64,000 bases of DNA from a virus (IMGVR_UViG_3300033067_002020:1-64000); one strand, 5' to 3'. Positions 5,056 to 21,238 are shown, counted from the stretch's first letter. The notes: generated by a model not told the origin, from the sequence alone. Program-made: numbers and translations.

Positions 5056-5216
5056 ACGGTCAGGATTCAGTCCTGACCTGGGAATTTATCCTTGATCACC
5101 TCATTTCTGAATTTATTATGTGCGCATAAGGAAATGAAACATTTCCGTTGATCGTGTCATTGACACGACCGTCGAAAAATTTTCAGGTCAAACGGTCAGG
5201 ATATAATCCTGACCTG
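5056..5216. repeat. Two copies of the palindrome GGTCAGGAT-N3-(A/G)TCCTGACC
   Basis: 5058-5078 and 5194-5214, 136 nt apart, in a non-coding region. Confidence 0.75.
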
Positions 5217-5282
5217 AACTGACTTTTGTCTTGTCCTGATAAAATGCAAACGTCAGACAACCAACCGCCCATTACAAGATAG

Positions 5283-5564
5283 TCAATATAACGCTGAATT
5301 TACCACAAAGGAAATGCAATGAATGCATTTCCGCTGGCACTTGTAAGTGACATAAAGGTGATCGCTTAATCCTAATCGTGTCCGACCGCTGAAATCATAT
5401 TCCTCGATTCCTTTTGATGTTAACATCGTGACTTTTGTTCCGTTATGTCTAAGAACGATCATCCTATGATAGTTGTCCTGACGGTTAGGATAAATTCCTA
5501 ACCTCGGCTCCGAGCCATCGCATTCGCCATAGTCCGACCAATGAACCAACCCTAAAGGCATCAT
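5283..5564 (-). CDS. SH3/KOW-like family member in inverted orientation
   Basis: MIVLRHNGTKVTMLTSKGIE matches the family motif. Confidence 0.6.
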   Translation of the reverse strand: MMPLGLVHWSDYGECDGSEPRLGIYPNRQDNYHRMIVLRHNGTKVTMLTSKGIEEYDFSGRTRLGLSDHLYVTYKCQRKCIHCISFVVNSALY

Positions 5565-5639
5565 CTGTGATCATTGAATCTGTTCATTCATTGCAATTCC
5601 GTTGACATGATTTTACGTTATTACATTGCAATGTTTAAA

Positions 5640-5670
5640 TTGTGATCAATGCATCAACTTATGATAACAT
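5640..5670 (+). promoter_or_regulatory. Promoter TTGTGA-N19-TAACAT
   Basis: ATG 5680 lies 9 nt after; no SD. Confidence 0.75.
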
Positions 5671-5679
5671 TAACTGCAT

Positions 5680-6813
5680 ATGACATCACAAATTGAGATG
5701 GTTTGGGTGTGTCCGAGTTGCAAGTCCACCGTCCTCGGACGACACAAAAGTTGCACTGGTTGTGGTCGACGAAAGACACGGCATGAAAGTTTCATCATGC
5801 CATCGGAATTGCAACAACTGACAGATCTGTCGCTTCTTGAGAAGGCGGCGTTGCCACCTGATTTGCAGTGCCAATTTTGTGGCGCGATGCGATTTGCGGC
5901 CACCAGACGGTCAGACAGTCGGGATACATCCCGACCTGGACTAAATCCTGACCTGAATTGCGAGAATTGTGGTGGTCAAGGAAGTGAAACACTTCCATGG
6001 GATGCCCAACCTGACAATGACATTGAAATGACAAAAGCGTTTCGACCCAAGTTTCACAACTGGAAACGTTGGGGGCTCGTGGCTGGTGGCGTTCTTGGAT
6101 TGGCCGTCGTATCATACTTGGTGTTGAGACCACACGTCGAAGGCGCCAAGGTTGATGCGTCACATTGGGTTTACACCGTGAGCGTGGAACGTTTTCATAG
6201 CGTTCATGATGAGGGGTTCAACGCTCCCTTTGGCGCTGAAAACGTCACGATGTCCGGTGCTCGGGTGCATCACTATGTCTCCGTTCCAAACGGGTTTCAC
6301 TCGGAGTTTGTGACCGACTCTCGGTGTGGTCAGGTTTGCACGCCAAGACCCCAAGTGTGCCAAACGGTGCCCCGCAGTTGCACCTCAAATCGCAACGGTT
6401 TTGCGACATGCACAGGTGGAGGAACGACGTGTTCTGGTGGTGGGATGTCATGCGTCACTCGAAGTTGTTCGGTGTCCGTCCAGGATTATCGTAACGATCC
6501 TGTCTTCATGCCATGGTTTTCTTGGGACGTGTGGCGATGGGATCATCAACGTGACGTCGTCACCGAGGGAAATTCCGTGGAGACATGGTGGCCGAGCGAC
6601 GAAAAGATCGCGTTGCGGTTGACGACGTCAGGTCGTGAGGACGAACGAATATCGGATCGCAAGGAAAAGTATGACGTCACGTTCACCACCGATTCAGGAA
6701 AGGTTGTCACCTATCACCCGGCTTCACGACAAGGTTTTATCGGTTTTCGGATTGGTGACCGGCATCGATTGAAAATCGGTCTGTTGGGTGTCGATGTTGT
6801 GAACGGGAAATGA
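5680..6813 (+). CDS. Zn-ribbon membrane protein with a Cys-rich C-terminal extracytoplasmic region
   Basis: W.CPSC...C.GCG, CQFCG and CENCGG motifs; one TM helix (WGLVAGGVLGLAVVSYLVL); later Cys-rich stretch. Confidence 0.8.
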   Translation: MTSQIEMVWVCPSCKSTVLGRHKSCTGCGRRKTRHESFIMPSELQQLTDLSLLEKAALPPDLQCQFCGAMRFAATRRSDSRDTSRPGLNPDLNCENCGGQGSETLPWDAQPDNDIEMTKAFRPKFHNWKRWGLVAGGVLGLAVVSYLVLRPHVEGAKVDASHWVYTVSVERFHSVHDEGFNAPFGAENVTMSGARVHHYVSVPNGFHSEFVTDSRCGQVCTPRPQVCQTVPRSCTSNRNGFATCTGGGTTCSGGGMSCVTRSCSVSVQDYRNDPVFMPWFSWDVWRWDHQRDVVTEGNSVETWWPSDEKIALRLTTSGREDERISDRKEKYDVTFTTDSGKVVTYHPASRQGFIGFRIGDRHRLKIGLLGVDVVNGK

Positions 6814-6823
6814 AACCTTTCCG

Positions 6824-7105
6824 TTGATGTCAACTCTAAACAGAGATTGTTGTTGCAACTATGAGGACTGGCACCGTGGCGACCTGATTCGTTGTAAGCA
6901 TAGTGCCATGGTCTATAGAGGCGTTCATCAAGATAATCCACGCTGGGAAGCCAAGGGTGCCCTTGGGTTTGTCCTCGCTCATGGCCAGCGTTGTGATGAA
7001 TGTCTCAACGATGAATCTTATCTATGCAAATGGCAAACACAAGTCCTGGTGAGGCGTGGCATCGTCTACGTTGATGACGAGGATTGGGTGAAGGTCGATG
7101 ATTAG
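6824..7105 (+). CDS. SH3/KOW-like family member
   Basis: RGDLIRC ... VLVRRGIVYV. Confidence 0.75.
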   Translation: MMSTLNRDCCCNYEDWHRGDLIRCKHSAMVYRGVHQDNPRWEAKGALGFVLAHGQRCDECLNDESYLCKWQTQVLVRRGIVYVDDEDWVKVDD

Positions 7106-7322
7106 GGGTGATCTGGTAAAGATACGGTGGGTTGAAGGTGTGTCTGCATGGACAGAAATTGTTGATCTCGAACGACTGCCACGCGGGGCACCAAGACTCA
7201 CATTAAAAAAATCAGGTGAAATTGGTGTGCTTCTTGAGCGTGGCGACGGCGTTTGCGTCATCCTAAGCGCTCACGGTCAGGTGACTATTCTTAAACATTA
7301 TGTTACAAGGTTTATCACATGA
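7098..7322 (+). CDS. SH3/KOW-like family member
   Basis: RGDLVKI ... ILSAHGQVTI. Confidence 0.8.
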   Translation: MIRGDLVKIRWVEGVSAWTEIVDLERLPRGAPRLTLKKSGEIGVLLERGDGVCVILSAHGQVTILKHYVTRFIT

Positions 7323-7585
7323 TCGGTGAGCTTAGAAAAATGTTGTCGCATGATAGGATTGGTCCGGATGGCAAGGCTCCCAAAGTTTGCCTGTATGCAT
7401 CAGAGAAGGAATACCTATACCGCCTGTATTATGCCGTGTTAGAAGAGGGTGACGTGTGCATCGTTCTTCATCGTGACAACAGTTTACTTCAAGTGTTGAC
7501 ATCAGCCGGCACTGCGTTTATCGAGGTGCTTGACACCAAGACGATTTACGGTGATTATGGTAAATTCTACACTCATCATAGGTGA
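7319..7585 (+). CDS. SH3/KOW-like family member
   Basis: MIGEL ... VLTSAGTAFI; ATGA overlap. Confidence 0.8.
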   Translation: MIGELRKMLSHDRIGPDGKAPKVCLYASEKEYLYRLYYAVLEEGDVCIVLHRDNSLLQVLTSAGTAFIEVLDTKTIYGDYGKFYTHHR

Positions 7586-7745
7586 CATTGCAAAGGTGGA
7601 ACGTAACGACTGGGTCGTGATCATCCTTAAACAAGCGACATACCCGTTGCCATCAGATGAATCAAGATCAATGAAGATGTCTTACGTTCTAAGCGCCAAT
7701 GGCGTCTGGTGGATTGCGACATCTTCCTTATGTTGTGTAAATTGA
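7557..7745 (+). CDS. SH3/KOW-like family member (start 7557)
   Basis: IGDIAKV ... VLSANGVWWI; close paralogue of 8237-8446. Confidence 0.75.
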   Translation: MVNSTLIIGDIAKVERNDWVVIILKQATYPLPSDESRSMKMSYVLSANGVWWIATSSLCCVN

Positions 7746-7764
7746 ATGTCAGAAATGTTATGAT
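7733..7764 (+). promoter_or_regulatory. Promoter TTGTGT-N20-TATGAT (leaderless)
   Basis: ATG 7771 lies 6 nt after. Confidence 0.55.
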
Positions 7765-7770
7765 TGACAC

Positions 7771-7995
7771 ATGATCGGTGAATTGCGATCTTTGCAGGAA
7801 CGCCCGAAAAACGATCAGGTTGGGCTGTCAATGACAGCGGAACGCGCTTGGGCTGGTCTTATTGATTTTTCTGTAAAAAATCATTCTATATGTATCATCC
7901 TTGGTGTGGAAGCCGTCGGTGGTTTTCACATGATTTTTATGTTGACACATCGTGGGATAGGATGGGTCGATAAATCAGAAATTAGGGATTTATGA
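7771..7995 (+). CDS. SH3/KOW-like family member
   Basis: MIGEL ... MLTHRGIGWV. Confidence 0.8.
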   Translation: MIGELRSLQERPKNDQVGLSMTAERAWAGLIDFSVKNHSICIILGVEAVGGFHMIFMLTHRGIGWVDKSEIRDL

Positions 7996-8240
7996 CGTTA
8001 AATCGTGGTGAATTACAATATATACGCCATAATCCTGGCACAAAACGTTCTCGTCACGCTGAACAGATTGGTTTGGCATCGTCCGCCGCACAGGTTTGGT
8101 TGACTCGCACTGATTTTTTCGTAGATCCTTCTCCATGTGTCATTATTGATGTGGCCTTGGTCGGAGGATCTAATGTGATCTTTGTGTTAACCCAACGTGG
8201 GCCAGGATGGATTTACGAATCAAAGGTTGGGGATTTATGA
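7992..8240 (+). CDS. SH3/KOW-like family member
   Basis: NRGEL ... VLTQRGPGWI; ATGA overlap. Confidence 0.8.
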   Translation: MTLNRGELQYIRHNPGTKRSRHAEQIGLASSAAQVWLTRTDFFVDPSPCVIIDVALVGGSNVIFVLTQRGPGWIYESKVGDL

Positions 8241-8446
8241 CGTTAAATCGTGGTGACATTGCGATTATCAAACGTATTGATGTGATCGTGATCGTTCTTA
8301 AACAACGTAGGACACATCGAACAGCTGAAGGATCGCGTTCCCTTCAAATGTGTTATGTTCTAGGTTCAAGTGGTCTTTATTGGATCGCATCATCGTCGTT
8401 ACACATGGTGAAATTGTCGTCAGAATATGATACTATTGACATATGA
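8237..8446 (+). CDS. SH3/KOW-like family member (start 8237)
   Basis: NRGDIA ... VLGSSGLYWI; ATGA overlap. Confidence 0.8.
   Translation: MTLNRGDIAIIKRIDVIVIVLKQRRTHRTAEGSRSLQMCYVLGSSGLYWIASSSLHMVKLSSEYDTIDI
8406..8436 (+). promoter_or_regulatory. Promoter TGGTGA-N19-TACTAT (leaderless)
   Basis: ATG 8443 lies 6 nt after. Confidence 0.6.
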
Positions 8447-8649
8447 CACAACGTTGCAAACATGGTGAATTACTGTTGGTTGATGAAGAATCAACAACGT
8501 TTGCATTTGAAACCATTGGGTGTACACGAAATAAAAGTCATGTTGAAAAAACTGAAGTCGTGATATTCATATTTCAAGCAGGAAAACTTTTTCGAGTGTT
8601 AACGATGCGTGGATTAGAATGGTGTATGGGCGTTGGGTCAAATGATTGA
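8443..8649 (+). CDS. SH3/KOW-like family member
   Basis: KHGELL ... VLTMRGLEW. Confidence 0.75.
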   Translation: MTQRCKHGELLLVDEESTTFAFETIGCTRNKSHVEKTEVVIFIFQAGKLFRVLTMRGLEWCMGVGSND

Positions 8650-8878
8650 ACAACATAAATGTGGCGAGCTTCTGATCATCAAGAGAAGAGGACACGGCGT
8701 GCCGACGACGGCAGGTCTCATGGCTTCCACACATAAAGGTGGTGGAGGAGCGATCCTTTTGCAACCGTATAATGTTGTCATTTTTCTGAGGCGAAGTGGT
8801 TTAGACGTTCAGATACTAACATCGCATGGTGTGGTATGGATTTTTGGGTCTCATGTTTGTAGGTTACCCACAGAATGA
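8642..8878 (+). CDS. SH3/KOW-like family member (start 8642)
   Basis: KCGELL ... ILTSHGVVWI. Confidence 0.75.
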   Translation: MIEQHKCGELLIIKRRGHGVPTTAGLMASTHKGGGGAILLQPYNVVIFLRRSGLDVQILTSHGVVWIFGSHVCRLPTE

Positions 8879-8909
8879 ACTTCTGTGGGATGTAAAATAC
8901 AATAAGTTC

Positions 8910-9161
8910 ATGTCTGACAAGAAAATCTGTCTGAACATTGTTGGTGGGGACACGTTGTGTGTTCTGTTTCCAGAATTCCTCTTATATAACAAGCTTGAAG
9001 TCGCCGCTCGACCATGGTTCATTGATGATGATGGGGAGTTATGGACCAGAGCCGACGGACCAAACGCTCCAGAGAATTGTTTTTTAAAGCTTGTTGAGCC
9101 ACCTCCTGGAAAGGATTGGATCATCGTTCCGTCGTCACAAGTGTCATTTGTGAAATGTTGA
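8910..9161 (+). CDS. Hypothetical protein, 83 aa (start 8910)
   Basis: TACAAT box 6 nt before the ATG; fills the gap. Confidence 0.65.
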   Translation: MSDKKICLNIVGGDTLCVLFPEFLLYNKLEVAARPWFIDDDGELWTRADGPNAPENCFLKLVEPPPGKDWIIVPSSQVSFVKC

Positions 9162-9210
9162 TAAGTGGCATCTAAAGTGTAATAAACACTCAACCATCAG
9201 AAAAAACTCA

Positions 9211-9396
9211 ATGTTTAATTGAGGTGACATTGTCGGCGTTTTTCTTCTTTGTAAGCGTAATCTTCCTTTTGACAAGGGTGCGATCGAACCTGCCATTGTT
9301 ATTAAGAAAACGCTTAACGAAGAAATGGGATGCACCGTTTTAACAAAACAAGGCATTGAAACAATTCGTATTGAATGGTTAACACGTCTTATATGA
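9211..9396 (+). pseudogene. SH3/KOW-like family member with an in-frame TGA at codon 4 (9220-9222)
   Basis: MFN*GDIVGV...AIVI...VLTKQGIETI; ends in an ATGA overlap with the next gene. Confidence 0.7.
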
Positions 9397-9590
9397 AAGA
9401 CAATGAGATTGAAGAAGAACGACGTATCATAAGCTCAGGAGATCTCGTTCTATTTTTGGATGAGAATAGCTATGCTAGGCTAGAAATTGGTATGATCATC
9501 GTCGAGACGTCTGTTCCTAGCACGTTCCAAATTTTGGCATATGATGGCACGCGCAACTGTGCTGCTGCATGGTTTCATATTTGGCTATGA
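9393..9590 (+). CDS. SH3/KOW-like family member (start 9393)
   Basis: SGDLVLF ... GMII ... ILAYDG. Confidence 0.7.
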   Translation: MKDNEIEEERRIISSGDLVLFLDENSYARLEIGMIIVETSVPSTFQILAYDGTRNCAAAWFHIWL

Positions 9591-9868
9591 ATCATCAAAT
9601 AGGATCGTTAAGAAAGTTTTCTGCCACAGGATATTATTGTGCGTATTCATATGACGTCAACTCTGGTGAAATCACCAAAGTAAAATACGTTCCATCAGAA
9701 GAAAGATTGTTCATCTGTCTAAAAAGCGTGACAGTCAAACCTGATGATGATGAACTTCGTGATCGTTTACACGGAGGCACCCCAGATGAACTGATGATGA
9801 TATTGTGTTATAATGGTGTCATGTGGATACATGTAAACACAACAGAATGCGTTCAATGTCATGATTGA
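9587..9868 (+). CDS. SH3/KOW-like family member (start 9587)
   Basis: QIGSL ... LFICL ... ILCYNGVMWI. Confidence 0.75.
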   Translation: MNHQIGSLRKFSATGYYCAYSYDVNSGEITKVKYVPSEERLFICLKSVTVKPDDDELRDRLHGGTPDELMMILCYNGVMWIHVNTTECVQCHD

Positions 9869-10082
9869 ACCTGGAGACTTGTTGTGTATTGCAAAAATAA
9901 GTGGTTTATACGACGGTGACGAAAGTAAATACGTTTATGATCATTGTAAACGTTCTGTTGGCATCATTGATCTATCAGACGTCGCATTGATGATCGCATG
10001 GGATGATGCTGAATGGCGAATCGAGATATTGTCAAAATACGGTGTTGTGTTCCTCACACCGAATAGAGTAACAAAACTATGA
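9861..10082 (+). CDS. SH3/KOW-like family member
   Basis: EPGDLL ... ILSKYGVVFL. Confidence 0.8.
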   Translation: MIEPGDLLCIAKISGLYDGDESKYVYDHCKRSVGIIDLSDVALMIAWDDAEWRIEILSKYGVVFLTPNRVTKL

Positions 10083-10315
10083 TCAATCAAGAATTATCGG
10101 TTGGAACGTTGTGGATTACTTCTAAATCATTGTATCGAACACGTGATGATGGTGAAATTGGTTGTTTAATCCCAGAAGGTTCTGAAACGTTTTTGTTGTT
10201 GTGTCAACCATTTGTTTCGTATGAGTTTGTAAAAATTGTTTTTGTGTTAGGACGTTGCGGTGTAGAAGAGTTTGCAGCCACACACTTTTCTAACGGAAAT
10301 ATGACACAATGTTAG
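10079..10315 (+). CDS. SH3/KOW-like family member
   Basis: SVGTLW ... VLGRCGVEEF. Confidence 0.75.
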   Translation: MINQELSVGTLWITSKSLYRTRDDGEIGCLIPEGSETFLLLCQPFVSYEFVKIVFVLGRCGVEEFAATHFSNGNMTQC

Positions 10316-10500
10316 AAGTTGGAACGTTGCTAACGCTTAGTGATAAACGATCGTCACATCAAAGTCACGTGTCTTCCTCGGACACATTGATTGTTGTCAA
10401 AATCGATCATGACAAAGATTCGTTTTTGACAATAAGTCGACTTGGTTCGATGTGGTGGCCATTTAATTATGTCAATTATATTTTGATGATCGTGGAATGA
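10309..10500 (+). CDS. SH3/KOW-like family member
   Basis: EVGTLL ... TISRLGSMWW. Confidence 0.75.
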   Translation: MLEVGTLLTLSDKRSSHQSHVSSSDTLIVVKIDHDKDSFLTISRLGSMWWPFNYVNYILMIVE

Positions 10501-10516
10501 AAATTCCATGTAAATA

Positions 10517-10813
10517 GTGTTTAATTGTAACATGTCAGACAACATTTCAGAAATTGTTGGTGCTGCCGAGCGTGTTATCACAGTTCGAGGTGTAAATTGT
10601 TGTTGCGAAGGTCCCATCGATATGGGATTCCTTGATGACATATCGCTTGACGCCGCGCAACACATGGTCGATTTCCGTTGTTCATGTGGTAAGTGTTGTT
10701 GGTCAGAAAAAGAAGACCTGCCCCATCCAGAATGTCAACAATTTTTGCTTGCATTACGTAAGGTTTCTGTTGAACAAAGAACCGAATTGTTCAAGAGGAA
10801 CTGGACGTTGTGA
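10517..10813 (+). CDS. Cys-rich hypothetical protein (start may be 10532)
   Basis: In-strand ORF with a CSCGKC motif. Confidence 0.65.
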   Translation: MFNCNMSDNISEIVGAAERVITVRGVNCCCEGPIDMGFLDDISLDAAQHMVDFRCSCGKCCWSEKEDLPHPECQQFLLALRKVSVEQRTELFKRNWTL

Positions 10814-11097
10814 AAAATCCTGGTGATTTTTATCGAGTTTTTACTTCACGATTTTACGTTTACAGCATAGATAACATCGTCGGATTTCTCGAGACAAACG
10901 ATGTGTTTCTTGTCATTCGACCGTGTCCGCCACCTCAATACCATGAATTTCAAGAGGTTTTAATCCTCACAAAATTAGGTATTGGATTCATCACTTGTGA
11001 AACAATAGAGTCGAGCAGCGAATTGATTGAATCATGGATGATTTCACGCCAAAAATCAGGAGGCCGACGCTTTCGAAATGTCAACACGAAAGTTTAA
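10810..11097 (+). CDS. SH3/KOW-like family member
   Basis: NPGDFY ... ILTKLGIGFI; GTGA overlap. Confidence 0.75.
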   Translation: MKNPGDFYRVFTSRFYVYSIDNIVGFLETNDVFLVIRPCPPPQYHEFQEVLILTKLGIGFITCETIESSSELIESWMISRQKSGGRRFRNVNTKV

Positions 11098-11211
11098 TTA
11101 GACTTGCTTATTGGCTTCGGTTAAAAAACGTTGACACAATGAGCCGGCGACAACTGATTAGTTTGATTCACTGGCTCTTTACAAGACGCGAAAAGAAAGA
11201 GAGAAATTTAA

Positions 11212-11475
11212 ATGTCGGAAGATTTTAATGATCAAACCGGGTTAATTGTTACGTTTCGATGTCGGAACTGGTTGACGTATCCTTCATGCATGCGATTTCA
11301 AGCTGGGTATTTTGACCTAAGAAGTGAAACTTGTGACGATATGATTCGAGGTGTTGAAGAGTTGGGTTGGCAAGTTCATTTCAATGATGGTGTTGTCTCA
11401 ACGAGAGCACTATGTCCGGTGTGTGTTAAGAGAGCATCACAGCAGGGCGAAACTTTGCCCTCTGACGGCGGCTAG
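11212..11475 (+). CDS. Hypothetical, possibly Zn-binding protein
   Basis: Two N-terminal Cys residues and C-terminal LCPVC. Confidence 0.7.
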   Translation: MSEDFNDQTGLIVTFRCRNWLTYPSCMRFQAGYFDLRSETCDDMIRGVEELGWQVHFNDGVVSTRALCPVCVKRASQQGETLPSDGG

Positions 11476-11493
11476 AATATTCGCGAGACAATA

Positions 11494-11751
11494 ATGCAGT
11501 ATCATTCACCGGCCCGTGATGAATTATTTAGTGACAACGTGGGTGACCTACGTCAGACAACGTATGTGACGCCAGTGTTTATCAACATCGGTAGTCAAAA
11601 AGAAAGATTGTTAGAAGGTGAGGTCTTCATAATCATACGACGACGTTTTAGTTCAAATATGTTTATTATTCTCACTAGGTTTGGTACACGATTGATTCTT
11701 GGCCATTTTGTAAAAGACGATTCAATTGTCGTGACACATGTTGAAAAGTAA
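11494..11751 (+). CDS. SH3/KOW-like family member
   Basis: NVGDL ... GEVFIII ... ILTRFGTRLI. Confidence 0.8.
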   Translation: MQYHSPARDELFSDNVGDLRQTTYVTPVFINIGSQKERLLEGEVFIIIRRRFSSNMFIILTRFGTRLILGHFVKDDSIVVTHVEK

Positions 11752-11983
11752 CTTACTTTTAAGAAAAGGCGATTTATGTTGCGTCGTGGGTGACATGCCC
11801 TATGCAACAAATGCAAATTTATTTAGAACTGATGGCATGCCAGAAAGCATCATGGCGGGTGAACCTGTCATTTATGTCAGGTTCGATAACAATGTATCAG
11901 GCACTACTTATCATTACGTCTTATCAAAATTTGGATTGATGCGTATGGTAGATAGAAACATCACATATGCAAACATTTCGTAA
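11738..11983 (+). CDS. SH3/KOW-like family member
   Basis: RKGDL ... GEPVIYV ... VLSKFGLMRM. Confidence 0.8.
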   Translation: MLKSNLLLRKGDLCCVVGDMPYATNANLFRTDGMPESIMAGEPVIYVRFDNNVSGTTYHYVLSKFGLMRMVDRNITYANIS

Positions 11984-12203
11984 AGGAAAACTTTACTCTC
12001 TGGTGATTCATCAAGTCGCACAACGGTTCGATGAAGTCAACGCTCATTATGTTACTGAAAACGATGATGAACTTGAAGAAGGGGAATGTGTCATTTACAT
12101 TAGATCGCATAGAGGAGGCTGTCCGTCAACGCTTTGGTGCTATGTGTTGACAAAATTTGGTATTCGTGAAATTCGTAAAGAATGTCTAAAAAAGGAAATC
12201 TAA
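11967..12203 (+). CDS. SH3/KOW-like family member
   Basis: RKGKLY ... GECVIYI ... VLTKFGIREI. Confidence 0.8.
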   Translation: MQTFRKGKLYSLVIHQVAQRFDEVNAHYVTENDDELEEGECVIYIRSHRGGCPSTLWCYVLTKFGIREIRKECLKKEI

Positions 12204-12205
12204 CA

Positions 12206-13195: not shown

Positions 13196-13196
13196 T

Positions 13197-13400
13197 ATGT
13201 TGGAAATCGGCACTTTGTGCCAAACAATTCATGAAGACACCGTCCAAATCGGAGGAGGTAGATCAAACAATCAAATGGTCAACCTCCACAAAGATTCAAT
13301 CGTGTTGATTTTAAAGTACAATAAAACAAATCATTTGTGTAACGTCATATCAACATCAGGTCTTGGTTGGATTTGGCCGAAAAATTTACGTCAGATGTAA
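13197..13400 (+). CDS. SH3/KOW-like family member
   Basis: EIGTL ... SIVLIL ... VISTSGLGWI. Confidence 0.8.
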   Translation: MLEIGTLCQTIHEDTVQIGGGRSNNQMVNLHKDSIVLILKYNKTNHLCNVISTSGLGWIWPKNLRQM

Positions 13401-13416
13401 TTAAGCAAAGAATAAC

Positions 13417-13698
13417 ATGAAAAAATATCGTTGTCGCGTGATGTTGCCAGAAGTCAGTGAATGGAAAACAATCGAACAACGTTCTGGTGTTATGGCGGCA
13501 AATGAATTCTTTTTTGTGTTTGATAATTTGCCTTGTGTTAGGTATAACAACGTAAATTACGCGACAATTGAAATTGAAGATGATAAACCAATCATCGTAA
13601 GTAATGCACGAGAACGACAAAGTTCTATCAAAATCGCTTCAAAAATAGAACTTTGTGTTCGACTGGCCTGTGACGAACAATTGAATTACAAATGTTAA
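13417..13698 (+). CDS. Hypothetical protein, 93 aa
   Basis: In-strand ORF, fills the gap. Confidence 0.7.
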   Translation: MKKYRCRVMLPEVSEWKTIEQRSGVMAANEFFFVFDNLPCVRYNNVNYATIEIEDDKPIIVSNARERQSSIKIASKIELCVRLACDEQLNYKC

Positions 13699-13976
13699 AT
13701 TTAAGTCAAGGCGATTTGGTAAACATCAATCATCGTATGGGATATAAAAGTTTCCCTCGAGAACACGTTGTCCAATGGATGGGCGATGTTCGTCGAGGGA
13801 TTGTTTTATCTGTTCAAGAAAACACAGATCTTGTTAGAATTTTGACTGCTACGGGAACTTGGTGGATCAATCACGTTCACCTCAACAGAATTAGATTATA
13901 TGAGCCTGTCAGAGTATCAACGGGAGTCTTGCATCTTAAACAACGCAAGCATTCCAACGACTTTGAACATTCCTAA
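13692..13976 (+). CDS. SH3/KOW-like family member
   Basis: SQGDLV ... GIVLSV ... ILTATGTWWI. Confidence 0.8.
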   Translation: MLNLSQGDLVNINHRMGYKSFPREHVVQWMGDVRRGIVLSVQENTDLVRILTATGTWWINHVHLNRIRLYEPVRVSTGVLHLKQRKHSNDFEHS

Positions 13977-14777
13977 ATCTTCTAACGCTTTTGCAGCCTC
14001 TTGAAAAGTTGAACCTGTTGTCACGACGTCATCAACGATCACGACGTTATACATTTTAGAGTCTCCACCGAGAGCAACGTCAATGATTGAATCATTTGCA
14101 GCTTGCCAGTTCTGCACGGCAGACCTGAACGCAGGCTTTACGTATTTTCTGATGCTTGGTGTTGGGTCTGCTTTCATTCTCTCAAGACCTCTTGTCACTG
14201 ACTTTTGAGTTGTCGGTGACATCTTGCTTAATTTTTCAGGATCGAATTGTGCATTTTTCAGTTGTTTCACAACGCCAGCTGGGACGAATTTTGCTCCTAG
14301 TTTTTGAGCGATGACAGTGGCAAATATACTTGCGAGTTGGCTCCTCGATTGAGGACACGTCACGATATCAACTTTTTCTGTTATCCAACTTGCGGCTCGA
14401 CCACCAAATTTTTGTGCAAGTTTTTCCTGAATTCCAGGTTCAATCACCATGTTGTGTTCTGAGGCATTTCCTAGTTTAATTGCTTCAACAACGTCTTCTG
14501 GAGAGAATTCAGGAATGTTTTTTGAGTATGCGCCAGCAAAGCTTTGTGCGACTTGAATCGGTGCGAGAACCTGTTGTCGATTTGAGGTTCCCTTGATGTA
14601 AGGTTTCCCAGGTGCCATGAACCCAAAGCCGTTTTCAGTGTTGCCACCGTCTGTCGAACCAGTAAACGTAACTTGCCACGTTCCAGGTGATTTTGGATCT
14701 GCGGCGACGTTTATTGCCTCAGACAGAGTTTGTCGTATCATCAATCGTAAACATTCTCTTAACGTATGATTAACCAT
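13917..14777 (-). CDS. Type I phosphoribosyltransferase-domain protein (start probably 14777)
   Basis: PRPP-binding loop VVIVDDVVTTGSTF; TATTTA box 5 nt before ATG 14777. Confidence 0.85.
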   Translation of the reverse strand: MVNHTLRECLRLMIRQTLSEAINVAADPKSPGTWQVTFTGSTDGGNTENGFGFMAPGKPYIKGTSNRQQVLAPIQVAQSFAGAYSKNIPEFSPEDVVEAIKLGNASEHNMVIEPGIQEKLAQKFGGRAASWITEKVDIVTCPQSRSQLASIFATVIAQKLGAKFVPAGVVKQLKNAQFDPEKLSKMSPTTQKSVTRGLERMKADPTPSIRKYVKPAFRSAVQNWQAANDSIIDVALGGDSKMYNVVIVDDVVTTGSTFQEAAKALEDLGMFKVVGMLALFKMQDSR

Positions 14778-14825
14778 AATGATAAATAATGTGCATATCA
14801 GCAAGATGAGAATTATAATTGTTTC

Positions 14826-15122
14826 ATGCTTCAAATAGTGTCAGATGGATTTCAAGGTCGATTGTGCAAAATCTTTTGGCACGATTCTAATCCTCTGTCA
14901 CAATATCTTCGAAGTGATCCAACGTCTCCAGTGAATCAGATACCATGTTTCGCCTTTGCCGAAGATCCTCAAAACATTGGGCACAGACAACTCTTCCATC
15001 TTCAATTTAACGATATTGTTATCATTCTTCAAAAACTACGTGGCAAAAAGCGTGTTCAAGTGCTAACTAAGTTTGGTGTTGGATGGGTGAGTATGGATTA
15101 CTTACGTGGTATCACTACTTAG
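14826..15122 (+). CDS. SH3/KOW-like family member
   Basis: NDIVIIL ... VLTKFGVGWV. Confidence 0.75.
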   Translation: MLQIVSDGFQGRLCKIFWHDSNPLSQYLRSDPTSPVNQIPCFAFAEDPQNIGHRQLFHLQFNDIVIILQKLRGKKRVQVLTKFGVGWVSMDYLRGITT

Positions 15123-15144
15123 TGCATTCTAGGGTATCTATACC

Positions 15145-15429
15145 ATGTCGACAAAGTTCCAAGTAAGTAGACTTTTTACGTACGTTGGTAAGAGTCGAAT
15201 TAAGTTATTCAATTTTATTGAAGGTGACGATATAGTCGATCAAACAAAAGGTCAAGCACAATTTCTTTATCATAATGATAAAATAATCATTATTGATATT
15301 TCGCATATCAATGTAACACTTGATATCATGTGGATCTCGTTTTTAACTTCTCGCGGTCACGTAGGAATGATTCAATTAGGAATTGATGATTCGCACAGAG
15401 TTTCATGTTTGTTCATACATGAAACGTGA
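15145..15429 (+). CDS. SH3/KOW-like family member
   Basis: NDKIIII ... FLTSRGHVGMI. Confidence 0.75.
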   Translation: MSTKFQVSRLFTYVGKSRIKLFNFIEGDDIVDQTKGQAQFLYHNDKIIIIDISHINVTLDIMWISFLTSRGHVGMIQLGIDDSHRVSCLFIHET

Positions 15430-15466
15430 TTATGTAACTTATGGCATTTTATGTTACCATTGATGC

Positions 15467-15715
15467 ATGGTAAACACATTTGAATGCCATAGTGTGTATC
15501 AATTTATTGGTCCTGAATCACATTATGTATCAAAAGGTTTGTTTGACGACACGTTCGTTGGGAACGTTCATGAAAATGATCTCATCTTTGTATTGAATGT
15601 CCTTGAAAGTGAAGATCGATATGCACTAAGAATTCTTTCATCGCAATATGGTTGTGGAATTATCGAAGTTGAAAAATCAGAAGTTGACTTGAAAACGTTC
15701 GTTCTAATAACATGA
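15467..15715 (+). CDS. SH3/KOW-like family member
   Basis: NDLIFVL ... ILSSQYGCGII. Confidence 0.75.
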   Translation: MVNTFECHSVYQFIGPESHYVSKGLFDDTFVGNVHENDLIFVLNVLESEDRYALRILSSQYGCGIIEVEKSEVDLKTFVLIT

Positions 15716-16008
15716 AAATCTCTGACAAAAATTTTGCTATAATCGGAAAAGTGTATCGTTTTTTTGGTGAAGCCGACGGCGACTGTTTTTGGTTCGCTAG
15801 GAATCGTGTTGATTATTCGTTAGGAAAGCTTGATGTACGTGTACAATGCGGTGATTTAATTACAGTGTTGGAACATCAGGTAAATTGGTGTGATGAAACA
15901 AGCGATTATGAAATTTCCGTCAAACTCTTGACTAAGAACGGATGTGGATACATCGTTGCAATGATGAATGATGTGAAATACATGCCTCAATTTATGGAAA
16001 TCACATGA
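15712..16008 (+). CDS. SH3/KOW-like family member
   Basis: GDLITVL ... LLTKNGCGYI. Confidence 0.75.
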   Translation: MKISDKNFAIIGKVYRFFGEADGDCFWFARNRVDYSLGKLDVRVQCGDLITVLEHQVNWCDETSDYEISVKLLTKNGCGYIVAMMNDVKYMPQFMEIT

Positions 16009-16238
16009 ATGAAAAAATAGTAATCAATGAATTATTGACATTGTTATGTGAGTTTCTTCCTCAGTGCGTTGGAAATTGTGGTGAGGTTGCAACTCGTAGC
16101 ACAAATTGTTCATGTCCAATGGGTGTCACTTATTATTGCGACGATTGTGATATTCCATTGACAAAGCTATCATCGTTCAAAGGTTGGGAAGATTTACCTT
16201 GGTCTACAACCGTTAGAAACGCTAAAAAATTCAAATGA
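16005..16238 (+). CDS. Small putative Zn-finger protein
   Basis: C..NCGE.AT ... YYCDDC; ATGA overlaps on both sides. Confidence 0.7.
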   Translation: MNEKIVINELLTLLCEFLPQCVGNCGEVATRSTNCSCPMGVTYYCDDCDIPLTKLSSFKGWEDLPWSTTVRNAKKFK

Positions 16239-16480
16239 AATTTAATAAAGGCGATCTAGTTGTCATTATCAATCATAACGGTGTGAAACCGCTTGATAAG
16301 ACATTTGACACAGGAACGTCTTTACGTGTTGCAGTTTATGACGATAACATGAAATATGCAACGCATCTAATAGCAAATCAACATGGAATTGTCATTGAAG
16401 ATAATGACACGATGTTAGTGAGCGTGATGTTTGAGTCAGGACGTTACTTGATTCAACGTAAATTTATAAAAAAGCAATAA
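16235..16480 (+). CDS. SH3/KOW-like family member
   Basis: FNKGDLVV ... GIVIE ... VMFESG. Confidence 0.75.
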   Translation: MKFNKGDLVVIINHNGVKPLDKTFDTGTSLRVAVYDDNMKYATHLIANQHGIVIEDNDTMLVSVMFESGRYLIQRKFIKKQ

Positions 16481-16502
16481 AAATTGCATATTTAACATTA
16501 GA

Positions 16503-17228
16503 ATGAAAGAAACTCTTAGACAATACATTTCCTTAGTTTTAGAAGCAATACATCAAGAGAGACCAGAGGGAACAACCTCAAGTAAGTTTCTATTCAATGA
16601 GTTTAAACAACTAAAAGATCAAAATGAAAAAGTTCAATACGCCAAGCAACGTCTAAAATTGCTTGGCGAAGGCTCGTCACGAATCACGTTCATCTTTACG
16701 AACAGACACGTGCTAAAAATTGCAACTAACAAAGCTGGCTTTGCACAAAACATGGCTGAACTTGACGTTGCAACAAATCCTAACATGAAACCAGTCATTG
16801 CAGAATTGAAGGATTATGATCCTAACGGTTCTTGGCTAGTTGAAGAAATGGTTCGTGAAGTCGACGATCAAGAGTTTGAAGATTTGTCTGGCGTTCCATA
16901 CGTATTTTTTACCCAAATTATCCAGTCACATGTGAATGCGTCACCGTCAGCACAAAAACGGCTTATCAGCAGACTCGATCCAAAGGGTCAGCAGTGGATA
17001 AAAAATGTCATTCATATGATTGAGACAGGAAATCTGATCGAGGCTGACTTTTTGAAAGTTGAACATTGGGGCAAGACAGGTTCAGGTCGTCTTGTCATCA
17101 TGGATTATGGTTATACTGAAGACGTGTTCAATCGTCACTACGATAGTGGTACAGTCGCTCCAACACAAATTGCTGCAACAGAAAAAGCGCCCATAAGCCA
17201 ACAACCCACACGAAATATACAAAAATAA
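16503..17228 (+). CDS. Protein-kinase-like protein
   Basis: Gly loop LLGEGSSR, VLKIA, N..E, D...HWG..GRLVIMDYG. Confidence 0.8.
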   Translation: MKETLRQYISLVLEAIHQERPEGTTSSKFLFNEFKQLKDQNEKVQYAKQRLKLLGEGSSRITFIFTNRHVLKIATNKAGFAQNMAELDVATNPNMKPVIAELKDYDPNGSWLVEEMVREVDDQEFEDLSGVPYVFFTQIIQSHVNASPSAQKRLISRLDPKGQQWIKNVIHMIETGNLIEADFLKVEHWGKTGSGRLVIMDYGYTEDVFNRHYDSGTVAPTQIAATEKAPISQQPTRNIQK

Positions 17229-17258
17229 GGTTTAGGTTACATTTGATTTTAGGTGACA

Positions 17259-17543
17259 ATGAAAAGTTTGAGACAAATGATTTTAGACGTGAAACGACGT
17301 ACATCTCCAACAGTATCTTCTGATGTTGATGAAATCATTGATCTAAAATCAAATCATGTAAAGCCTAGCACTTTGATTGGTATGTCAAAGCAGGACGCTG
17401 TGTCGTTGGTTTAAAAACAACAAATGTTAGCGCGAATCATCAGAGAAGATGATATCTGGTTTGTCGTGACTAGTGACTTGCATCACAATCGAATGAATCT
17501 TGAAATTCAAAAAGGAGTCGTGGTGAAAGCTGCGATTGGATAA
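17259..17543 (+). pseudogene. Protease-inhibitor-like (I78/potato inhibitor I) paralogue with an in-frame TAA at 17412-17414
   Basis: LIGMSKQDAVSLV*KQQMLARIIREDDIWFVVTSDLHHNRMNLEIQKGVVVKAAIG aligns with 17545-17727. Confidence 0.7.
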
Positions 17544-17544
17544 A

Positions 17545-17727
17545 ATGAACGTAAAAAATGTCATTGGAATGAACGTTAATGAAGCTGTTAAACTTTTAAA
17601 AGAATCTGGTTTCACCGTAAATCAACATAATGAAGGAATGCCCCATTTGTTGACGTGTGATTATAGACTTGATAGAGTTACAATTGTTGTTACAAATAAT
17701 ATTGTAACCAATGCTTCGTTAGGGTAA
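17545..17727 (+). CDS. Peptidase inhibitor I78/potato inhibitor I-like protein
   Basis: VIGM...EA..LL ... LTCDYRLDRVTIVV...V....LG. Confidence 0.7.
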   Translation: MNVKNVIGMNVNEAVKLLKESGFTVNQHNEGMPHLLTCDYRLDRVTIVVTNNIVTNASLG

Positions 17728-17752
17728 TCTAAAAATGTAACAGAGGTGTAAC

Positions 17753-17938
17753 ATGTTTAATGTCAGTCGTTTTGTTCTTCCCACGTTGTCTGTCGGCGGG
17801 TCAGTTACGATGATAACAGCAACTGTATGTTGTATGTTTTTTGGGCAAATTGCTGACGTTATATGTTTTGCTACAGTTACAGGATTACAAATTTACAGAT
17901 CGTATCTTGATGTTAATTCTCTAATAAAGGTAAAATAA
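17753..17938 (+). CDS. Small membrane protein
   Basis: GAGGTG SD; hydrophobic sequence. Confidence 0.6.
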   Translation: MFNVSRFVLPTLSVGGSVTMITATVCCMFFGQIADVICFATVTGLQIYRSYLDVNSLIKVK

Positions 17939-18204
17939 TGCAAAAATTGCAAATTGCTGTTGATTGTTTGTCAAATCCAATTTATATTGGCAGTAAAGTT
18001 GCGTATGCAATAGGAACTTATGGTGGTGGCTCTGCTCTTAGAATTGGTGTGGTTTACGGCGTAGACATTAATGAAAAAAGAACTTTATTGCGAATTAAAG
18101 CCACAACAGCTAAAATGTGGGATTACGAGCAACATGATTACGTGACTAAAGAAGTGAATCGTAGTACTTCAAATCTAACAAAGTTAATTGTAATTACAAC
18201 CTGA
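17938..18204 (+). CDS. Hypothetical beta-rich protein
   Basis: IYIGSKVAYA...LRIGVV, a common small phage protein pattern; coupled to the upstream stop. Confidence 0.75.
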   Translation: MQKLQIAVDCLSNPIYIGSKVAYAIGTYGGGSALRIGVVYGVDINEKRTLLRIKATTAKMWDYEQHDYVTKEVNRSTSNLTKLIVITT

Positions 18205-18216
18205 AAGGATATTGTT

Positions 18217-18576
18217 TTGAAGAGTTCTGACTATCGCGCTAGATTGAATTTTGTTGTTTCTTCTTATGTTAAGTCTGGTATTTCTGATTCATTGATACGT
18301 AACAGTCACATGAATCATTACGATGAAGAAACGATTGACTCAAACGTTGTCAAACAACACTTGTTAGCAATTGTTGATGATTTTTGTGAGTCATATCAGG
18401 GCAGCGACAAAATCATTGATGTGTTGAATGGTTTAACAAAGGTAACAAAAAAACATCAATTAGATTATGACGTCTATCGTCAAACCACGATTGATGCATA
18501 TCTTGTTGACTTTTTAAACTATTTTGCCATGAACTCTGGCGTTGATTTAGCGTTATATGTTGGCGATCTTTACTGA
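18217..18576 (+). CDS. Hypothetical protein, 119 aa
   Basis: AAGGA SD, TTG start. Confidence 0.7.
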   Translation: MKSSDYRARLNFVVSSYVKSGISDSLIRNSHMNHYDEETIDSNVVKQHLLAIVDDFCESYQGSDKIIDVLNGLTKVTKKHQLDYDVYRQTTIDAYLVDFLNYFAMNSGVDLALYVGDLY

Positions 18577-18594
18577 CAGATAGTCTAACATGTG

Positions 18595-18619
18595 AAAAGG
18601 CCTGAAAACAGGCCTTTTT
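18595..18619. terminator. Intrinsic terminator, possibly bidirectional
   Basis: AAAAGGCCTG-AAAA-CAGGCCTTTTT. Confidence 0.8.
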
Positions 18620-18657
18620 CCGTTAAACAACGATAATCTATATTTTACAATTTTCAT

Positions 18658-18939
18658 ATGTCGTCTAACACAAAAAACGTCGTAGCTATCACATTAATTG
18701 GTGTTGGTAAAGTTTGTGGATTGTGTGGAATCATGTTGGGTTATACCAATCATAGAAATGTTGCCGCGTTACTTTTGTTGATTTATGGTTTGTTGATATT
18801 AACGTCAGTTTTGCTGTGCATTTCGTCATTGATCAATAACTTAAAAATTGAAAAATCTGATAAAGATGTGATTCGACGCCTTCATGAAGAAGGCGTGTTG
18901 AAACACTATTTATTAGAGGTATGTCAAAACGCAAACTGA
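18658..18939 (+). CDS. Two-TM membrane protein
   Basis: Two hydrophobic segments; TACAAT 6 nt before the ATG. Confidence 0.75.
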   Translation: MSSNTKNVVAITLIGVGKVCGLCGIMLGYTNHRNVAALLLLIYGLLILTSVLLCISSLINNLKIEKSDKDVIRRLHEEGVLKHYLLEVCQNAN

Positions 18940-19553
18940 TAACATTATTGTTAAGTGTCCTTGTGGGATGCGAATCACCTTCTTACGCTAATTCGTCAGA
19001 TGCTTTCATATCGTTACCAGATGTGAATGATAGTGTGATAGCTGACGTGTTAGACTCATCTAACGATACATCATTCGCTAAACAAACAAAAATTTTGTTA
19101 ATAGGTGATTCACAAGCTGGTCGGTGTTCAACAAGAGTTGATCGTGTTAAAAAATCAAACGAAACGGTAGTTGTTGATTACAAGGTCAGCACAACAATCC
19201 AATATTGGAATGACAAGAGATTTGTTACTTCAATTGATCGCTTTTCGCCTGACAAAGTTGTCATATTTCTTGGCACAAACAATTATCTTGATAAAGTTTT
19301 ACCAAACATTGAATCAATTTTGACAACTGTCAAAAATAAATCGCTTGATTGCGTGTGGCTTGGACCGGTTGCCGTTCGTGGTGATAAAAACATTACAATC
19401 AATAAATTGTTGAAAAGAGCAGTTAGCGAAACTTGTGTTTATGTCGATTCAATTGATGCAAACATTCCATTAGAAGATGGAATACATCCTAGTTCATCAG
19501 GAATAGACATATGGTTGAACTTAGCATGGGACAATTTCAGAAAGCGCAATTAA
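18921..19553 (+). CDS. SGNH/GDSL-family esterase, lipoprotein-like
   Basis: LLIGDSQ, FLGTN, DGIHP; lipobox-like LVGC. Confidence 0.85.
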   Translation: MSKRKLITLLLSVLVGCESPSYANSSDAFISLPDVNDSVIADVLDSSNDTSFAKQTKILLIGDSQAGRCSTRVDRVKKSNETVVVDYKVSTTIQYWNDKRFVTSIDRFSPDKVVIFLGTNNYLDKVLPNIESILTTVKNKSLDCVWLGPVAVRGDKNITINKLLKRAVSETCVYVDSIDANIPLEDGIHPSSSGIDIWLNLAWDNFRKRN

Positions 19554-19555
19554 GA

Positions 19556-19789
19556 TTGACACAATCTGGTATTGGTTTGTGTAAAGAATCAAATTGTCAG
19601 TATCATACTGATGTATGGTTATCAACAAATAATGTGTTCATCATACTTGACATGTATGATAACAATGGGAAAAATGATTCTAGTTGTGAAAAGATTGCTA
19701 AAGTCATATCAAAGTTTGGTATGCATTGGATTCGTATTACACAATATCAACATGATTGGATAAACATGCATAGCAAGGACATAACATGA
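19556..19789 (+). CDS. SH3/KOW-like family member (start uncertain)
   Basis: NNVFIILD ... VISKFGMHWI. Confidence 0.6.
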   Translation: MTQSGIGLCKESNCQYHTDVWLSTNNVFIILDMYDNNGKNDSSCEKIAKVISKFGMHWIRITQYQHDWINMHSKDIT

Positions 19790-20316
19790 ACATCTTGATC
19801 GTAGGCCTTGGTAACGTCGGTAAGGAATATTCACAAAATCGTCATAATATAGGTTGGCATGTGTTAGATTCTTTTCACAAAGAACAACAATTTTCAGATT
19901 GGAGAGATGCATATCAAAATTGCAAAATTTCTTCTGGTGTTGCAACCAATCATAACATAACGTTATTGAAACCACTAACGATGATGAATCTTTCGGGAAA
20001 CGCTGTAAAAAATTGTGTTGAATCGAACACTCCAGATAACGTGATAGTGATACATGATGAGATGGATATTCCATATGGCGATGTAAGAATGAAATTCGGT
20101 GGGTCTCGAGCGGACCATCGTGGGCTTCGAGACGTGGTCAGGGTGCTTGATACACATGACTTTCATAGAATCCGTTGTGGGATTGGGCGTCCTCCAAAAG
20201 ATCGTAAAGTTCTTGATCACGTATTGTCTGATTTCACTCAAATTGAACTTGAAACAATGAATTGCTTTATTAACAATATTATGTGTTGTTTGAGTGAAAC
20301 TTTAAATTCATTGTGA
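19786..20316 (+). CDS. pth: Peptidyl-tRNA hydrolase
   Basis: IVGLGN.G.EY...RHNIG, KP.T.MNLSG, IHDEMD, H.GL, R.RCGIGRP. Confidence 0.95.
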   Translation: MNILIVGLGNVGKEYSQNRHNIGWHVLDSFHKEQQFSDWRDAYQNCKISSGVATNHNITLLKPLTMMNLSGNAVKNCVESNTPDNVIVIHDEMDIPYGDVRMKFGGSRADHRGLRDVVRVLDTHDFHRIRCGIGRPPKDRKVLDHVLSDFTQIELETMNCFINNIMCCLSETLNSL

Positions 20317-20338
20317 TTTTTAGTCCATACGTAAATTC

Positions 20339-20584
20339 ATGATCGATTACTTTTTTGAAGAAAAAAAAGCGAAAGGAAGATTAGTAGAAATACTAGAGGA
20401 CGATCTTATTTGCGATCATAACACTACGTCAAAAATCAAAAAAGGAGACAAAGGAGTAATCATAAACGTAATCACAAAATATCCTGATGGAAACGAGTGC
20501 GCAATTGCAAAATATGTCATCTTGTTATCGTCAGGATGTGTTATCACGCTTGAATCAATAGGAGAGACTTTTTGGTTCATTTGA
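20339..20584 (+). CDS. SH3/KOW-like family member
   Basis: GRLVEI ... KGDKGVII ... ILLSSG. Confidence 0.7.
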   Translation: MIDYFFEEKKAKGRLVEILEDDLICDHNTTSKIKKGDKGVIINVITKYPDGNECAIAKYVILLSSGCVITLESIGETFWFI

Positions 20585-20586
20585 TG

Positions 20587-20617
20587 ATGTGAATATTGTA
20601 ACATACTGTAGTAAACT
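20587..20617 (+). promoter_or_regulatory. Promoter ATGTGA-N19-TAAACT
   Basis: Exact 19-nt spacer upstream of 20647. Confidence 0.65.
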
Positions 20618-20646
20618 AAACAAATGACCCAACATGAGGTGCAATA

Positions 20647-21231: not shown

Positions 21232-21238
21232 TTTGTGT

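Follow-up and report, generated by a model that had tools for sequence, protein, structure and literature searches.

The window analysed here is a stretch of 64,000 nucleotides of viral DNA (IMGVR_UViG_3300033067_002020:1-64000), and its subject is an array of small genes that an earlier note had placed at 5283-20584 and described as about 30 divergent paralogs with a small SH3/KOW-like beta-barrel fold. The window is the start of a 75,310-bp IMG/VR virus contig with an estimated completeness of approximately 20%; thus, it was considered to be a fragment of a very large phage. The source is an uncultured giant myovirus-like phage. Two sibling contigs with syntenic arrays were reached through the RNA ligase gene of the array, namely, L036, which extends to 297 kb and has a ligase with 92% identity, and L037, which extends to 70 kb (86%). 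A plus-strand block of small genes occupies the first 24 kb of the window and contains the array, and the minus-strand part of the window carries divergent baseplate-wedge genes and a glycan island. The array represents a multigene family that is specific to this lineage; its products are SH3-fold barrels of 60-100 amino acids (aa) that stand alone. It is located in a variable, early-type plus-strand region, where the family makes up about half of the genes in a 15-kb block.

The reality of the family was evaluated by sequence profiles. All-against-all BLAST linked only some of the open reading frames (ORFs). A hidden Markov model (HMM) built from the 11 BLAST-linked seeds gained six more ORFs, and the iteration converged at 18 of the 317 window ORFs with E<0.01, the best of 1,585 shuffled decoys being at E 0.02-0.1. 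The strongest membership test at the level of sequence was an HMM built solely from sequences of an unrelated contig, L033; it recovered 19 window ORFs at E<0.01 and added 11738, 15712, and 9861 (genes are named by their first coordinate). When the 21 firm members were left out one at a time, 19 were recovered at E<0.01 and 20 scored above all 1,585 decoys. Models built from some members therefore recover the others. A six-frame search of the whole 75-kb record returned 23 matches, all of them on the plus strand between 1440 and 19774, with none in the last 11 kb. The weak candidates were ranked with a 50-sequence profile (A2) that had been built without them. Directly below the firm set stood 15467 (E 1e-3), 16235 (4e-3), 9375 (7e-3), and 15145 (0.02), followed by 6824 (0.05), 10079 (0.06), 5283 on the minus strand (0.09), and 20339 (0.34); ORF 17938 received no support from this profile. 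The same gradient was obtained by hhalign of orthologue trios, in which all negative controls scored lower.

Judged from these profiles, the count is 24 intact supported members (21 firm and three by the independent profile) and one broken copy. Another four candidates are marginal, and one or two ORFs are unsupported. The family proposed by the earlier note is thus real and far beyond chance, whereas its number of about 30 array ORFs is reduced to these figures. The shared motifs on which the proposal was based were also recovered, with the glycine of G(D/E)L present in at least 90% of members and that of (V/I)L(T/S)xxG invariant. Translational coupling, which had been suggested for most of the genes, agrees with the overlap of 26 of the 45 junctions in the plus-strand block, ten of which are of the ATGA type. 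A non-coding or artefactual origin of the ORFs was considered separately and was ruled out by a ratio of nonsynonymous to synonymous substitution rates (dN/dS) of 0.07-0.52 in all tested members, with many synonymous changes.

All members and candidates lie on the plus strand except 5283. The most upstream is the additional copy that had been noted at 1440 (1440-1649, 69 aa), 5 kb upstream of the main array; it is a firm member (leave-one-out E 9e-8, L033-only HMM E 7e-3) with a weak Pfam SH3_16 match (E 0.0095), and its nearest relative in L036 is located within the array there (3952-4134). The densest sub-array is at 7098-8878, where eight firm members follow in succession (starts at 7098, 7319, 7557, 7771, 7992, 8237, 8443, and 8642; leave-one-out E 6e-8 to 6e-3). 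This block is 96-100% identical in L037 and strongly rearranged in L036, with identities of 38-77% and extra copies resembling 7319. Each of the closer pairs that had been pointed out is indeed linked. The pairs 7557/8237 (50% identity, E 4e-15) and 7771/7992 (38%, E 5e-16) are recent duplicates, and 8443/8642 (E 1e-3) and 11738/11967 (E 7e-4) are related at lower significance.

Further downstream, two firm members at 9569-9868 and 9861-10082 were found by the profiles and the leave-one-out test; in run X10, unrelated sequence substitutes for the C-terminal three quarters of the 9569 gene. They are followed by the firm members 10309-10500 (63 aa; HMMs and leave-one-out) and 10810-11097 (95 aa, with a long C-terminal tail; L033-only HMM E 1e-8, leave-one-out E 9e-4) and by a group of three at 11494-12203 (11494, 11738, and 11967; L033-only HMM and leave-one-out), of which 11494 is missing from L037 and replaced in run X15. 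The firm member 13197-13400 (67 aa) was the first to be modelled; it is swapped as a cassette, its L037 counterpart being 43% identical and the gene being exchanged in X15. Subsequent firm members are 13692-13976 (94 aa; HMMs and leave-one-out), whose C-terminal tail overlaps a convergent gene, 14826-15122 (98 aa), which was modelled second and has the largest RT-loop insert, 15712-16008 (98 aa; L033-only HMM E 2e-4, hhalign probability 45%, leave-one-out weak at E 0.04), and 19511-19789 (92 aa; HMMs and leave-one-out), which is coupled by ATGA to a peptidyl-tRNA hydrolase gene. The three members supported by the independent profile are 9375-9590 (71 aa, E 7e-3, hhalign probability 35%), 15467-15715 (82 aa, E 1e-3, six-frame E 9e-3), and 16235-16480 (81 aa, E 4e-3).

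In the case of 9211-9396, the nonsense codon reported earlier was verified: TGA is codon 4 (9220-9222), and the six-frame profile matches 9286-9390 (E 2e-4). In L036 (7225-7455) and L037, this codon is TAC (Tyr), and the intact orthologues match the family profile. The TGA allele also occurs in a contig of an independent wastewater run (8230-9833, 0 differences). The nonsense allele is therefore real and polymorphic and not an assembly error. Among the marginal candidates, 6824-7105 (93 aa) has a Cys-rich N-terminus (E 0.046 with A2, 0.024 with the L033-only HMM) and is kept in the siblings with a dN/dS of 0.16. Two others are 10079-10315 (78 aa, E 0.056, hhalign probability 6.7%) and 15145-15429 (94 aa), which at E 0.02 and 9.4 bits ties with the best decoy. 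The fourth, 5283-5564 (93 aa), is the sole inverted one. The earlier note counted it as an inverted copy; the gene itself is real, with 90% identity to its L036 counterpart and a dN/dS of 0.30, but its membership is marginal, since its score (E 0.09, 7.3 bits) is under the best decoy and its hhalign probability is 1.8%. The candidate 20339-20584 (E 0.34, hhalign probability 1%) is without sequence support as a member, but the gene is real and conserved, with 98.8% identity in L036 and L037.

Structure prediction covered two members, 13197-13400, with the 18-member alignment as input, and 14826-15122. The first model (AF2, predicted local distance difference test (pLDDT) score 86.6) is an all-beta barrel with strands at residues 7-10, 14-18/26-30, 35-42, 47-52, and 55-59, a 3-10 turn at 61-63, and a last strand at 64-66. 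Its best PDB matches by Foldseek were SH3 domains of the Src type, including those of Abl and Fyn (E 3e-4, TM 0.67-0.79). By exhaustive structural alignment, several SH3-like barrels were nearly tied; the leading matches were the Hpy99I N-terminal domain (Z 9.2), plectin SH3 (8.3), NusG KOW (8.2, with a root-mean-square deviation (rmsd) of 1.3 Å over 51 residues), and a CPH domain (8.0), and many SH3, SH3b, Tudor, and PWWP domains ranked lower. The second model (AF2 pLDDT 81.3) has the same core with an insert of approximately 47 residues between strands a and b, and its best PDB matches were SH3 and SH3b domains. The models support a five-strand barrel of the SH3 type, in which an RT hairpin, an n-Src loop, and a distal hairpin are predicted and a 3-10 turn precedes the last strand.

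Sequence searches pointed in the same direction. When the 18-member profile was compared with 1.84 billion representatives, long proteins with 3-7 matched stretches were retrieved (E 3e-8 to 1e-3), and all eight that were inspected were multi-SH3 proteins in which the stretches fall on Pfam SH3_3, SH3_1, and SH3_2 domains. As these scores sum over repeats, the link is to the SH3 clan and not to one family. None of the 50 members reached any Pfam gathering threshold (three sub-threshold matches, E 0.01-0.08), there was no Pfam KOW match among the members, and none of the 50 matched PHROG at E<0.01. The PDB sequence profile gave only Abl SH3, which was not significant (E 0.08), and a protein-feature search gave unnamed clusters and some SH3_3, which serve as leads only. 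The SH3/KOW-like assignment, originally made from the pattern of residues, was therefore right at the level of the fold, as judged from the two AF2 models and the profile matches to true SH3 repeats, and the family is a new, unannotated branch of SH3-like barrels.

Alignment to the family model placed the conservation in strand a (G-D/E-L, with its glycine and hydrophobic residues), in the hydrophobic strand b, in the distal hairpin (VLT-xx-G), and in the last strand, with an aromatic residue in strand d kept in many members. The consensus of 18 as well as of 50 members retains only G, L, D, VLT-xx-G, and often the strand-d aromatic. Conservation is confined to residues that determine the fold. 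The RT loop (1-47 residues) is the insert that follows strand a, the n-Src loop (6-23 residues) is the segment that follows strand b, and both differ in every copy in length and sequence. The RT hairpin of the first model is of lower confidence, and the 47-residue insert of the second model is at the equivalent site. In SH3 domains, the RT and n-Src loops flank the ligand-binding face.

Profile-match look-ups extended the family beyond L036 and L037 to a further sibling (L118), two fragments (L035 and L034), a short contig (L032), and a second clade (clade B: L033 and L117), in which the stretches consist almost wholly of family genes. At E<0.01, the number of matches was 46 in 12.9 kb of L117, 39 in 14.4 kb of L033, 33 each in L036 and L118, 25 in L037, and 8 in the distant L076; in the stretches searched, the copy number in related phages thus ranges over 25-33 among the siblings, 39-46 in the second clade, and 8 in the distant relative. 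Two adjacent members are present in L032 (166-662), a 1-kb Joint Genome Institute (JGI) contig with 60% GC, which indicates that the family is not restricted to low-GC phages. The distance of window copies to clade-B copies is about their distance to each other. As four of them (14826, 10810, 9861, and 15712) resemble a clade-B copy more than they resemble any paralog in the window, part of the expansion predates the clade split. The array was also observed to be at the contig end in both lineages (L117:1-12852 of a 139,921-bp contig; window 1-21000), which might be explained by a terminus of the genome or by a break in the assembly where the sequence is variable and repeat-like.

Eight studies contain the phage in their data, which were taken from wastewater, rivers, estuaries, and sludge, and four wastewater RNA-seq runs contain the array only as contigs. 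The RNA ligase also led to thirty IMG/VR contigs (29-44% identity), in which no family member was located near the ligase gene. One of the ligase-bearing phages, the 322-kb L026 with a 44%-identical ligase, had no member at E<0.01 in its whole record, with the own-genome search as positive control. Against GenBank phages, tblastn of two members gave nothing at E<0.1, and megablast of the window identified no phage similar at the DNA level, region 5000-21000 giving nothing. A word-indexed protein search with 50 members returned just 11 matches, the k-mer filter being too coarse for this family.

The nearest paralog of a member tends to be close to it in the array (mean rank distance 5.6 vs. 10 expected, P=4e-4). 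Comparison with L036 revealed three copies resembling 7319 instead of one in the window, together with eight additional members in a block (4168-5925) that is unique to L036 and absent from the window. Moreover, L036:9780-10022 is a single hybrid gene whose N-half is from 11738 and whose C-half is from 11967, joined in the shared GE(P/C)VIY of strand b. This hybrid is the product of an unequal crossover between adjacent paralogs, by which the RT loop of one copy was re-paired with the n-Src loop of the other. The same hybrid is also in the protein database, as P0041. In contigs of other studies that are otherwise 97-99% identical, the stretches 9625-9861, 11381-11727, 12013-12144, and 13206-13408 are replaced by unrelated sequence of similar length, the last of them being exactly the 13197 gene. 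While neighbouring genes are 97-100% identical among the relatives, members may be lost, duplicated, fused, or exchanged for other sequence. Four processes thus change the repertoire, namely, duplication at short range, unequal crossover in strand b, replacement of whole genes as cassettes, and, occasionally, inactivation. The birth-and-death expansion envisaged in the earlier note is borne out by the nearby nearest paralogs, the pseudogene, the hybrid, the L036-only eight-gene block, and the cassette swaps.

To describe selection, orthologues were compared between the window and L036. The median dN/dS of members was 0.27 (n=22, range 0.07-0.52), while that of interspersed non-members was 0.08 (n=18; Mann-Whitney P=4e-6), and the comparison with L037 gave the same picture. 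Each copy is under purifying selection, yet the constraint on members is threefold weaker than that on the genes around them. In pooled segments, dN/dS was 0.40 for the RT and n-Src loops and 0.23 for the core, and amino-acid divergence was 23% in the RT, n-Src, and tail segments vs. 16% in the core (P=2e-4). The idea of a hypervariable loop accordingly stands for paralogs, among which the RT and n-Src loops vary in length and sequence, but not for orthologues, in which these loops are under purifying selection. The dN/dS values of the orthologue comparison showed no sign of an ongoing arms race within a given copy.

The array may best be read as a repertoire of single-domain binders with copy-specific partners acting early in infection, a function to which we assign a probability of roughly one half. 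Single-domain binding modules would be made early in infection, and each would recognise its own partner, most likely among host proteins of take-over or counter-defence; different repertoires would then suit different hosts. A crossover at strand b brings together an RT loop and an n-Src loop from different copies, which would create new binding faces. It was further considered that such recombination, together with the movement of cassettes between related phages, might give the population a shared, constantly re-assorted library of SH3 faces against variable host targets of defence or take-over. This extension is unlikely; if it were true, the combinatorial repertoire would generate diversity at the level of proteins with no mutagenic enzyme dedicated to the task. 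Several observations weigh against the binder repertoire. Presence in an RNA-seq library is neither proof of transcription nor of strand. No gene-wide or loop-wide nonsynonymous excess was found, dN/dS being <1 everywhere with no direct diversifying signature, and loops less constrained than strands are expected of any small barrel. The ligand residues of Src-type SH3 domains (ALYDY, WW, and PxNY) are not conserved in the consensus of 18 or 50 members; thus, a binding mode is not transferable from eukaryotic SH3. In addition, nucleic-acid-binding barrels score equally in the structural comparison, including NusG KOW (Z 8.2), the Hpy99I N-domain (Z 9.2), PWWP, and Tudor.

The next most likely view, which we consider doubtful, is that the members are nucleic-acid binders like KOW and LSm barrels, with each paralog tuned to a different transcript or site. 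The barrels of NusG/Spt5 KOW, Xrn1, PWWP bound to single-stranded DNA, and the DNA-binding N-domain of Hpy99I are among the top structural matches (Z 6.8-9.2), and RNA ligases and a peptidyl-tRNA hydrolase are interleaved with the array. Early SH3/LSm-like barrel proteins also exist in T4, where a GoF mutant stabilises gene 41 mRNA (PMC12152347), but no HMM or hhalign link to T4 GoF or MotB.1 was obtained (E above 20, probability below 1%), and the N-terminal helix and Sm motifs are in neither model. The top sequence-profile matches are protein- or glycan-binding SH3 repeats and not KOW. The isoelectric points (pI) of members can be cited on both sides, as ten are basic (above 8), which would suit nucleic acids, whereas ten are acidic (4.4-6); the overall spread of 4.4-10.1 fits diversified surfaces better than one common nucleic-acid ligand.

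If the copies were largely redundant, the specificity of each would be irrelevant; the phage would require one generic activity in large amounts, or the array would have arisen neutrally from repeats that are prone to recombine in a hyperplastic region. The free variation of copy number among close relatives, the inactivation of one copy in part of the population, and the threefold weaker constraint on members than on neighbours are as this explanation would have it. However, paralogs are 15-30% identical and differ in loop length, yet their orthologues are under purifying selection, including the loops (dN/dS 0.40), and some copies appear older than the clade split, while redundant ones would be expected to homogenise or decay. 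Redundancy is hence regarded as quite unlikely. A role as cell-wall-binding SH3b modules acting on the envelope, as in endolysins and autolysins, was judged highly improbable. The profile does match bacterial SH3_3 and GW repeat proteins, and endolysin and autolysin SH3b domains are among the structural matches, but the members are stand-alone proteins without a catalytic partner domain, none of them reaches the Pfam SH3b thresholds, and the early-type block is away from lysis and structural genes. Moreover, no signal peptide or membrane segment was evident by reading the sequences, no predictor having been run.

The case is of interest because of what small early phage proteins represent, namely, the main source of take-over and counter-defence factors, most of which are without family, fold, or function. 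With 46 copies in 13 kb in the second lineage, the family ranks with the largest expansions of a single domain that have been seen in phages. The array can also be used as a compact test panel, as it combines a well-understood fold and a known binding face with natural variants and natural loop-swapped hybrids.

The surroundings of the array were also examined. Non-family genes stand among its members and encode Cys-rich small proteins, an RNA ligase, a kinase-like protein, and, in antisense, a phosphoribosyltransferase (PRTase)-like protein. An RNA-repair-type gene set is inside and beside the array and comprises an Rnl2-like RNA ligase (12182-13195, within the array), a peptidyl-tRNA hydrolase (19786-20316), an Rnl1-like ligase (21265-22449), and an ATP-dependent DNA ligase (22452-23759), all four in the plus-strand block. 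No tRNA genes were found in the window. The PRTase-like gene (13917-14834, minus strand) is antisense in the plus-strand array and overlaps the convergent 13692-13976 by approximately 60 nt; it is 98-99% identical in L036 and L037 with a dN/dS of 0.01-0.04, a constraint far above that of nearby SH3 genes. The Cys-rich genes between members (10517-10813, 11212-11475, and 16005-16238) look like zinc ribbons and are much better kept between siblings than the SH3 genes, 16005 being 99-100% identical. A second, smaller multigene family is upstream of the array, with three paralogs at 95-418, 1985-2278, and 4415-4789 that have a hydrophobic N-terminal segment and a conserved C-terminal end, CYDYGMY...(I)CE.

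The GC content is 45% in the first 9 kb of the window, 38% at 9-24 kb, and 36% thereafter, L036 having the same gradient, and the GC-richest family members are those at 6.8-8.9 kb. A repeated promoter-like element is found on the plus strand between 450 and 15470, with TTGTGA followed after approximately 17-19 nt by (G)GTATA..TCTATCT directly 5' of ATG. There are fourteen clear copies, of which three are within the array (7735, 8408, and 15426) and one is just upstream (5642). As the element directly precedes the ATG codons, very short leaders without a Shine-Dalgarno sequence are suggested. A sigma-70 scan of 5000-21500 gave 65 promoter-like sites vs. approximately 46 in shuffles (standard deviation 5.6), none of them strong, and terminator-like sites in the same region showed no excess over shuffles.

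Known barrel families offer the closest comparison for single members. The SH3/LSm-like barrel proteins of T4 are small, non-essential, early-region proteins, present as three copies that each have an extra C-terminal domain (PMC12152347). Similar to the present family, their N-terminal five-strand barrel has SH3-topology neighbours, their paralogs are beyond the reach of BLAST, and they have no assigned function. In contrast, 25-46 single-domain copies are found here in one array, the models show an SH3-type RT hairpin and 3-10 turn instead of Sm features, and no sequence relationship to T4 GoF and MotB.1 was detected (E above 20 for both family HMMs, hhalign probability at most 0.8%). The SH3b domains (Pfam SH3_3, SH3_4, SH3_6, and GW) and the Src-type SH3_1 share the fold and strand order, and the family profile matches their repeats. 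Unlike them, the members are stand-alone and cytoplasmic-looking and not modules of larger enzymes or adaptors, and the residues that bind proline peptides are not conserved. The KOW (NusG/Spt5), CPH, Tudor, and PWWP barrels have equal or better structural scores (Z 8.0-8.2, rmsd 1.1-1.3 Å), and a first strand of the GD-x-V type is common to KOW and the present family, but the long RT-type insert between strands a and b distinguishes the latter from KOW, with no sequence-level KOW match.

As an expansion, the array resembles that of Bacillus phage G, in which approximately 35 zinc-ribbon paralogs form a lineage-specific expansion termed 'unprecedented' (Iyer et al. 2021, PMC7824862). Both are cases of a giant phage with dozens of copies of one tiny domain without a known role. 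The fold there is a zinc ribbon, phage G is cultured, and neither cassette exchange nor hybrid genes were evidenced in that study, which sets the two apart. As a variable locus, the array resembles the hyperplastic regions of T4-like phages, in which variable small early genes between conserved blocks are swapped by recombination among close relatives (Comeau, Arbiol and Krisch 2014, PMC4122927). In both, gene content varies between close relatives while the flanking genes stay conserved. However, the genes swapped in hyperplastic regions are mutually unrelated and are exchanged at promoter or stem-loop motifs, whereas the units swapped here are paralogs of one family, with at least one exchange point inside the coding core.

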